Assembly: GCA_945948555.1 (NCBI GenBank)
Contig: CAMFBM010000003.1
Coordinates: 7,839 to 71,838, forward strand
Reading direction: 5' to 3'
DNA from: an uncultured Bacteroidales bacterium
GTDB lineage: Bacteria; Bacteroidota; Bacteroidia; Bacteroidales; UBA932
DNA length: 64,000 nucleotides
The position numbers and the translations under genes are program-made. The notes beneath the pieces are model-generated. The model was not told the origin of the DNA, searched no databases, and saw only the letters and a list, made by a program, of their open reading frames with translations. Shown piece by piece: positions 40,362 to 40,514 of this stretch; position 1 is the stretch's first letter, and every line of letters starts with the position of its first letter.

Positions 40362-40477
40362 AAAAACAAATGAGACGCGCCTCTCACGAGGGGCACCTCA
40401 TACTAACCACATAATTAATAACACTAAAACTAATAACCAATAAGTTGTGATCGTTACTGATGAACTCTCGAACAACT
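40362..40477 (-). ncRNA. Candidate trans-acting small RNA (about 115 nt)
   Basis: Consensus promoter upstream; 5' hairpin, U/G/A-rich core, 13-position terminator stem with GUGA loop and U tail; no ATG-initiated ORF of note. Confidence 0.65.
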
Positions 40478-40483
40478 CGGGTG

Positions 40484-40514
40484 CAAAGGTAGGCATTTTT
40501 TTATAATCTGCAAA
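40484..40514 (-). promoter_or_regulatory. Bacteroidota housekeeping promoter for the candidate sRNA
   Basis: Minus strand TTTG-N19-TACCTTTG. Confidence 0.8.

Follow-up and report, generated by a model that had tools for sequence, protein, structure and literature searches.

On the minus strand of the 64-kb stretch of DNA analysed here (the window), a predicted small RNA (sRNA) gene lies between two plus-strand genes. The gene at 39145–40290 encodes a flavodiiron, flavorubredoxin-like protein with ODP and flavodoxin domains (Pfam/NCBIfam), which makes the fprA label given by a first-pass annotation of the locus a sound one. Its terminator (40308–40337, plus strand) faces that of the sRNA unit, the two units being convergent. 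The 639-aa open reading frame on the other side (40638–42557) has its own divergent TTTG/TAnnTTTG promoter at 40565–40595 and matched no Pfam or NCBIfam family, leaving the "nuclease" label of the same annotation without a family behind it. This frame adjoins a SusD (42625–44694, minus strand) and SusC-like (44706–47639, minus strand) pair and may be an uncharacterised protein associated with a polysaccharide-utilisation locus (PUL). The sRNA unit consists of the following features:

40515–40540, minus strand: A/T-rich, UP-element-like tract upstream of the sRNA promoter (sequence; BLAST)
40511–40514, minus strand: −33 element TTTG of the sRNA promoter (pattern match; also conserved in homologues)
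40484–40491, minus strand: −7 box TACCTTTG, of the Bacteroidota sigma-A type TAnnTTTG (pattern match)
40362–40478, minus strand: predicted sRNA transcript of ~117 nt (from the positions of promoter and terminator)
40442–40478, minus strand: 5′ hairpin with outer stem GAGUUGU (40478–40472) / ACAACUU (40448–40442) (alignment and covariation)
40403–40441, minus strand: C-free core AUUGGUUAUUAGUUUUAGUGUUAUUAAUUAUGUGGUUAG (BLAST homologues, 18-mer scan)
40371–40400, minus strand: terminator stem-loop UGAGGUGCCCCUC-GUGA-GAGGCGCGUCUCA, a 13/13-nt hairpin (fold; covariation)
40362–40370, minus strand: U-run UUUGUUUUU (sequence; T-run after the hairpin in nearly all copies)

The spacer between TTTG and TACCTTTG measures 19 nt in the minus-strand reading, corresponding to the perfect promoter TTTG-N19-TACCTTTG described previously, and the terminator with its GUGA loop and U-run, opposing the terminator of the flavodiiron gene, is likewise present as reported. 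Transcription would start a few nucleotides past the −7 box and end in the U-run, and the full-length covariance model match spans 40362–40478 (118.5 bits). The window contains four matches to the promoter pattern TTTG-N17–21-TANNTTTG, where 0.84 would be expected, and two of the four fall within the sRNA intergenic region, namely the sRNA promoter and the divergent plus-strand promoter at 40565–40595.

A BLAST search of the sRNA promoter region within the same genome matched the promoters of tRNA-Val, Gly, Met, Thr and Pro as well as rRNA-leader-like contig ends, indicating that the promoter of the window copy is of the stable-RNA type and, by this likeness, probably strong. The tRNA genes of the genome share an A/T-rich TTTG...TAnnTTTG promoter (C13:279–437, C29:9515–9666, C27:321–480, C9:19790–19930), and a short leader hairpin (e.g. 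TCCCG...CGGGA) stands between these promoters and the tRNAs, which is also the layout of the sRNA 5′ end.

Conservation and distribution of the sRNA

A BLAST search of 36 congeneric genomes with the unit as query yielded full-length homologues with 73–84% identity. The core was identical in every aligned homologue (~30), with variation found in the promoter spacer, the hairpin and the terminator. In a less biased sample, for which copies were retrieved by the central 18-mer alone, the flanking core was intact in ~24 of 28 copies. The exact 36-mer occurred in at least 120 genome contigs and in at least 120 metagenome contigs, the latter all being long genomic contigs. The MAGs carrying it are classed as 'Candidatus Cryptobacteroides' or as unnamed Bacteroidales and originate from the guts of ruminants, horses, chickens, rabbits and humans. 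A phage origin of the sRNA was rejected, as the sequence was carried by a single viral contig only.

The covariance model R1 matched 141 of 151 Cryptobacteroides species genomes in a genus survey restricted to genomes at least 90% complete, mostly with one copy and with a maximum of four. A first family-level search with R1 matched all 14 genomes of the genus and gave one weak match among 186 genomes of 36 other genera. Among 401 family genomes the 17/18-mer motif was found only in g1 (56 genomes) and in both genomes of the sister genus g40, and the central motif TTAGTTTTAG(N0–1)GTTATTA was present in only two of 37 genera. As judged from its sequence, the family has one diverged relative, in this sister genus, where a sigma-54 promoter is followed by AUAUGGUUU(U)UAGUUUUAGGUUAUUAGUUUGUAAAA and then by a terminator. 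All three sister-genus copies (L221, ~1540–1650, plus strand; L222, ~1470–1600, minus strand; L223, ~810–920, plus strand) carry the sigma-54-type promoter TGGCACG-N4-TTGC/TTGT, pointing to sigma-54 control as what may be the ancestral state.

One contig terminates in a perfect palindrome made of two copies of the sRNA gene that point towards each other (L026, G028:C17:26771–26893), which is most likely an artefact of assembly.

Secondary structure and non-coding nature

The single-sequence fold of the 121-nt RNA was unexceptional (z = −1.5 versus shuffles), and the case for an RNA gene thus rests on comparative data. In an alignment of 49 diverse copies (A1), analysed with slid stem partners as controls, the 5′ outer stem and the two-part terminator were paired in 87.8% of cells compared to 33–50% for the slid controls, with 102 double-change cells and compensatory changes in 12 of 16 pairs. 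The 5′ stem, whose AGUUGU/ACAACU arms had been recognised earlier in the single sequence, comprises seven pairs, six of them changed on both sides (82.9% of cells paired), and encloses a variable inner hairpin with the loop GUUCU in most homologues. Within the terminator six of nine pairs showed compensatory changes, with 88–94% of cells paired.

The core had been described as U/G-rich and unstructured. Its composition bears out the first part (21 U, 9 A, 9 G and no C within 39 nt), but full lack of structure does not hold, as the predicted mean unpaired probability is 0.48, the central GUUUUAGUGU being the most accessible stretch with predicted values of 0.6–0.9.

In a coding test on the 49 homologues none of the frames had a consistent start or stop, and a small open reading frame was rejected on this basis. 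One reading frame is interrupted by a stop, the hydrophobic frame YWLLVLVLLIMWLV lacks a start codon in 42 of the 49 copies, and the third mostly has no stop before the end of the transcript. All three codon positions are invariant, which argues for selection on the nucleic acid. On these comparative grounds the core-plus-terminator unit is a conserved non-coding RNA gene. The earlier proposal of a self-contained sRNA unit, which a lack of conservation of core and terminator in relatives would have refuted, is thereby corroborated: the unit is conserved as a gene across Cryptobacteroides, its core being invariant and its terminator covarying, and the BLASTN and covariation checks advised at the time returned homologues, a second copy in the same genome and covariation in both hairpins.

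Modular 5′ ends and genomic context

We assigned 5′ classes to 160 unique copies according to what precedes the core. The window type, in which TAnnTTTG lies 25–62 nt before the core and a 5′ hairpin is present, accounts for 130 copies. A direct type with TAnnTTTG only 2–12 nt before the core was found in 10, the majority of which are preceded by a TTAAC-N6-TTAAC direct repeat that looks like a transcription-factor site. In seven copies the core follows ~12 nt after a textbook sigma-54 promoter (TGGCAC-N5-TTGCA), RpoN being encoded in the source genome, and another seven are fused 7–9 nt after tRNA-Cys(GCA) without a promoter of their own. One genome (G008; L006, L151–L155) holds ~7 near-identical units of ~170 nt in the order TTAAC-N6-TTAAC repeat, sigma-A promoter, core and terminator, several of them near contig ends, which looks like a recent intragenomic amplification.

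The source genome carries a second copy of core and terminator at C8:7327–7409, 99% identical by BLAST, which lies directly 3′ of the only tRNA-Cys gene detected in this MAG, the locus as a whole being C8:7327–7480. The terminator stems of the two copies are identical, whereas terminators differ between species, which suggests recent duplication or gene conversion.

Among the tRNA genes within 1.5 kb of 180 copies, 29 of 32 were tRNA-Cys; nine of the 180 copies were fused 7–9 nt after tRNA-Cys and 84% had no nearby tRNA. The linkage to tRNA-Cys fits an ancestral RlmI – tRNA-Cys – sRNA – Maf locus. A search for a conserved partner gene among the neighbours of the copies found none that was fixed, the neighbours being varied housekeeping genes (Maf, an RlmI-type methyltransferase, RluA, a KBL-type aminotransferase, an SDR, a HAD phosphatase and others).

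Relation to known sRNA families

Scanning 40300–40600 with Rfam 15 gave no family at the gathering threshold, and the sole gathering-level match in the window was the tRNA at 28210–28282. FopS (RF04319) scored 17.2 bits with a 131-nt query compared to a gathering threshold of 56 (E = 1.1), and GibS (RF04182) and BTnc231 (RF04180) scored 23.3 and 23.6 bits compared to thresholds of 115 and 80.4, respectively. For the sister-genus RNA the corresponding scores were 17.9 (FopS), 17.1 (GibS) and 22.6 bits (BTnc231). BTnc231 and GibS were the best Rfam matches for both RNAs, the first GibS/BTnc231 alignment partly using the terminator of the neighbouring gene. Rfam membership was therefore rejected, the weak BTnc231, GibS and FopS matches reflecting layout and composition at best, in agreement with the first-pass annotation, which had noted a GibS- or FopS-like layout and left homology unestablished.

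The FopS sRNAs of Bacteroides repress susC translation through pairing beside the start codon (PMC11697453). Like the Cryptobacteroides RNA, they contain a conserved U-rich stretch that is single-stranded, and after it a terminator hairpin, with a loop of the GUGA type, that leads into a U-run. Further features in common are sigma-A (TAnnTTTG) promoters, the possibility of multiple copies, and pairing beside susC start codons, be it predicted or proven. One FopS member is 3′-derived (PMC11697453), paralleling the tRNA-fused copies found here. The direct, sigma-54 and tRNA-fused copies match the FopS layout exactly, and the canonical window copy adds the 5′ hairpin. By eye, a stretch of FopS, CAUGGUAUUAGAUUUAAGGUUAAUAA, also resembles UAUUGGUUAUUAGUUUUAGUGUUAUUAA of the Cryptobacteroides RNA, and on this resemblance of the core to the FopS consensus a remote common ancestry is possible. 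The differences lie in the length (65–70 nt for FopS, ~117 nt here), in the 5′ hairpin and internal seed of the canonical Cryptobacteroides form, in the usually single copy of the latter, with some copies under a sigma-54 or tRNA promoter, and in its occurrence in another family of the Bacteroidales. Moreover, the FopS partner RbpB is absent from Cryptobacteroides: a search for RRM_1 (RbpB-type) proteins found none in the source genome and none in 30 of 31 genus genomes at least 90% complete, with B. thetaiotaomicron positive as the control.

Bacteroides sRNAs have long single-stranded AU-rich seeds, and GibS and BTnc231 of Bacteroides thetaiotaomicron resemble the present RNA in being intergenic and in having such a seed (PMC7366714). 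They also have in common the pairing, predicted for the present RNA, with translation initiation regions of carbohydrate-metabolism mRNAs, and differ in promoter type and targets.

Two more distant systems offer parallels for single features. The Qrr RNAs of Vibrio are paralogous, Hfq-dependent sRNAs with an absolutely conserved stretch of ~32 nt that can be transcribed from sigma-54 promoters and that target quorum-sensing regulators. The conserved stretch and the possible sigma-54 transcription recur here, whereas sequence and phylum are unrelated and sigma-54 drives only a minority of the Cryptobacteroides copies. In E. coli, 3′ETS-leuZ is an sRNA derived from a tRNA 3′ external spacer that acts as a sponge for other sRNAs; its release from a tRNA trailer parallels the tRNA-Cys-fused copies, but the Cryptobacteroides module also exists as a free-standing gene.

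Complementarity of the core to susC leaders

In view of the FopS precedent (PMC11697453), we contrasted SusC-like genes with the remaining genes. In the source genome, the predicted binding of the core to the 26 SusC-like translation initiation regions (TIRs) was stronger by 2.03 kcal/mol than that to all other TIRs, compared to a difference of 0.60 ± 0.57 for 25 dinucleotide-shuffled cores, none of which reached 2.03. The 6-mers complementary to core nucleotides 9–26 were enriched 4–7-fold in the −60 to +3 regions of SusC genes.

As a replication set we used 60 SusC-gene regions of 20 kb each, taken from five further species with the sRNA, yielding 61 SusC-like leaders and 699 other gene starts. 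Gene starts were assigned by a crude ORF caller, and the "other genes" are neighbours of SusC genes. The SusC-like leaders contained on average 4.26 core-complementary 6-mers compared to 1.11 for the others (p = 4e-20), and 1.73 for AT-matched controls (p = 4e-11). The difference of 3.15 between SusC-like leaders and other gene starts exceeded the 1.38 ± 0.40 obtained for 200 shuffled cores (maximum 2.52). Likewise, the duplex-energy difference was −2.45 compared to −0.23 ± 0.41 for shuffles, none of 30 being as low, and the predicted paired target positions lay mostly between −40 and −5. Individual motifs followed the same trend, with TAACCA in 25% of SusC-like and 3.4% of other leaders, AATAAC in 26% and 5.6%, AACTAA in 16% and 1.7%, and TAATAAC[CA] in 13% and 1.6%, respectively.

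We subjected four genera of the same family without the sRNA to the same pipeline as a negative control (35 segments, 37 SusC-like leaders). No specific signal was found there, either in the 6-mer difference (0.95 compared to 1.37 ± 0.44 for shuffles) or in the duplex energy (−0.42 compared to −0.54 ± 0.69). In direct comparison, SusC leaders of Cryptobacteroides held 4.26 core-complementary 6-mers and those of the control genera 2.35 (p = 4.5e-4), although the former are less AT-rich; for shuffled cores this comparison gave −0.64 ± 0.62, with none of 200 as high. With a signal in the sRNA-carrying species and none in the control genera, complementarity of the core to susC leaders is a specific trait of the sRNA-carrying genus. 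The suggestion made from the window alone, that the U/G-rich core could pair with A-rich 5′ leaders, those of susC being among the targets to check, thus gains support from six species, at the level of predicted pairing.

AACTAA, ACTAAA and TAACCA were also enriched in the SusC leaders of the sister genera (L434–L468; 16–22% compared to 2–5%), and some of the motifs may characterise susC leaders throughout the family.

Within the core, the enrichment of complements in the source genome was limited to the central part, whose complements were enriched in both analyses. We propose UUAGUUUUAGUGUUAUU as the seed, because it is shared with the sister-genus relative, is predicted to be the most accessible part and has enriched complementary 6-mers.

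Other classes of target were searched for with the same core. Genome-wide, 19 genes had TIRs predicted at or below −22 kcal compared to 10.8 ± 4.6 for shuffles; this tail is not significant, and general TIR targeting was rejected. Contiguous complementary runs in the genome were fewer than for shuffled cores, and with only the two sRNA genes themselves matching, a long antisense target was rejected as well. For the 23S/5S rRNA of a relative the best value, −22.7 kcal, fell within the shuffle minima of −19.9 to −26.6, showing no excess, so that pairing with these rRNAs was also rejected. The top single predicted target was an MFS sugar-phosphate transporter (C13:45306–46689, −31 kcal/mol), which was discarded since the pairing is lost in 11 orthologues. 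The leader of this transporter, upstream of 46689 on C13, contains the tandem duplication CCGGAAAAATATATACCGATATTT x2.

Discussion

We propose, with moderate confidence, that the RNA gene founds a new Cryptobacteroides-specific family of ~117-nt trans-acting, base-pairing sRNAs that would repress the translation of susC and hence PUL operons. The sRNA would be made from a strong sigma-A promoter of the stable-RNA type, and its 5′ and terminator hairpins would frame and stabilise the C-free, weakly structured core of ~39 nt. The core would anneal to A/C-rich motifs such as UAAUAAC(C/A), AACUAAA and AUAACCA, which precede by 5–40 nt the start codons of genes for SusC-like outer-membrane glycan transporters, and the duplex would occlude the translation initiation region, so that the polysaccharide-utilisation operon would be repressed. 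FopS and GibS act in this manner in Bacteroides. The inputs to the core-plus-terminator module would differ by genome: a sigma-A promoter with hairpin, a sigma-A promoter with TTAAC-N6-TTAAC, a sigma-54 promoter, or a joint transcript with tRNA-Cys that is then processed at the tRNA 3′ end. Several observations count against repression. The invariance of the 39 nt goes beyond the obvious need of pairing with degenerate motifs, and the canonical promoter looks constitutive, which would be unusual for a conditional repressor. In addition, the individual SusC duplexes are modest and imperfect (mean −17 kcal), and the adjacent susC of the window (44706–47639, minus strand) is a weak match (−10.8).

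The same elements can be drawn together into a wider and more tentative reading, possible but doubtful, in which the sRNA would be a genus-wide master brake on polysaccharide utilisation. Here, the core would present three tandem anti-UAAUAAC units, each able to engage the leaders of many susC operons. Dose would be set through the exchangeable 5′ module, for instance by a growth-rate-controlled stable-RNA promoter or by co-transcription with tRNA-Cys, and in other genomes by sigma-54 with an enhancer-binding protein or by a regulator binding the TTAAC repeat. The susC leaders would have co-evolved with the sRNA, and pairing would proceed without an RbpB-type protein as used by Bacteroides.

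The extreme invariance of the core, found in more than 100 species and stronger than degenerate pairing needs, together with a stable-RNA-type promoter suggestive of an abundant housekeeping RNA, keeps a protein-binding or housekeeping role as a rival. The core would then be a platform for an RNA-binding protein, sequestered or delivered in the manner of CsrB/RsmZ or 6S, and its complementarity to susC would be secondary. We regard this as unlikely. It would fit the lack of a general genomic excess of complementary sites and three KGUUAKUA units discerned by eye at core positions 4, 19 and 34 (GGUUAUUA, UGUUAUUA and GGUUAGUA), but the 15-nt periodicity of these units is statistically insecure, amounting to 10 of 15 identities in U-rich sequence. 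Furthermore, RbpB, the only global sRNA-binding protein known from Bacteroides, is missing from the source genome and from 30 of 31 genus genomes, the varied housekeeping neighbours include no linked candidate partner gene, and a genus-specific match to susC leaders is not predicted by protein binding.

It is quite improbable that the RNA is instead a stable species tied to tRNA-Cys or translation, such as a processed trailer- or leader-like RNA with a role in tRNA-Cys maturation or housekeeping. The prevalence of tRNA-Cys among the nearby tRNA genes (29 of 32), the nine fused copies, the second copy at the sole tRNA-Cys gene of the source genome and the tRNA-gene-like promoter and 5′ leader hairpin speak for such a tie; yet 84% of the copies stand away from any tRNA, most have their own promoter, meaningful complementarity was found neither to tRNA-Cys (by inspection) nor to 23S/5S rRNA, and the ancestral RlmI – tRNA-Cys – sRNA – Maf locus explains the linkage. 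That the unit is no RNA gene at all, being a DNA element (a recombination or attachment site or a small mobile repeat), as the multiple copies in some genomes such as G008 (~7 near-identical promoter-plus-core units) and the many copies at contig ends might suggest, or the gene of a tiny hydrophobic peptide read in the frame YWLLVLVLLIMWLV, is highly improbable, given the constant orientation between a promoter (sigma-A, sigma-54 or tRNA) and a covarying terminator with U-run, the lack of terminal inverted repeats and of a linked transposase or integrase, the single viral contig, the missing start of the hydrophobic frame in 42 of 49 copies, the usually missing stop of the other open frame and the invariance of all three codon positions.

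Returning to the susC-repressing sRNA, its layout is of a known kind, and so is its probable mechanism. The family itself has not been described before, and its phylogenetic distribution, its modular promoters and the genus-specific co-variation with its targets are new. To our knowledge, Bacteroides is the only genus in which sRNAs (GibS, FopS and DonS-type antisense RNAs) have been shown to control polysaccharide-utilisation loci post-transcriptionally. Cryptobacteroides (family UBA932) is an abundant and essentially uncultured inhabitant of ruminant, poultry and human guts and of the rumen. If the proposed function is true, the RNA would be an independently recognisable and highly constrained counterpart of the Bacteroides PUL sRNAs in a genus without the RbpB partner. 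The family also illustrates cleanly how a single regulatory RNA module has been placed behind promoters of the sigma-A, sigma-54 and tRNA types. The covariance model annotates a missing gene in hundreds of MAGs, and the susC leader motifs, which apparently co-evolved with the sRNA, provide a testable list.
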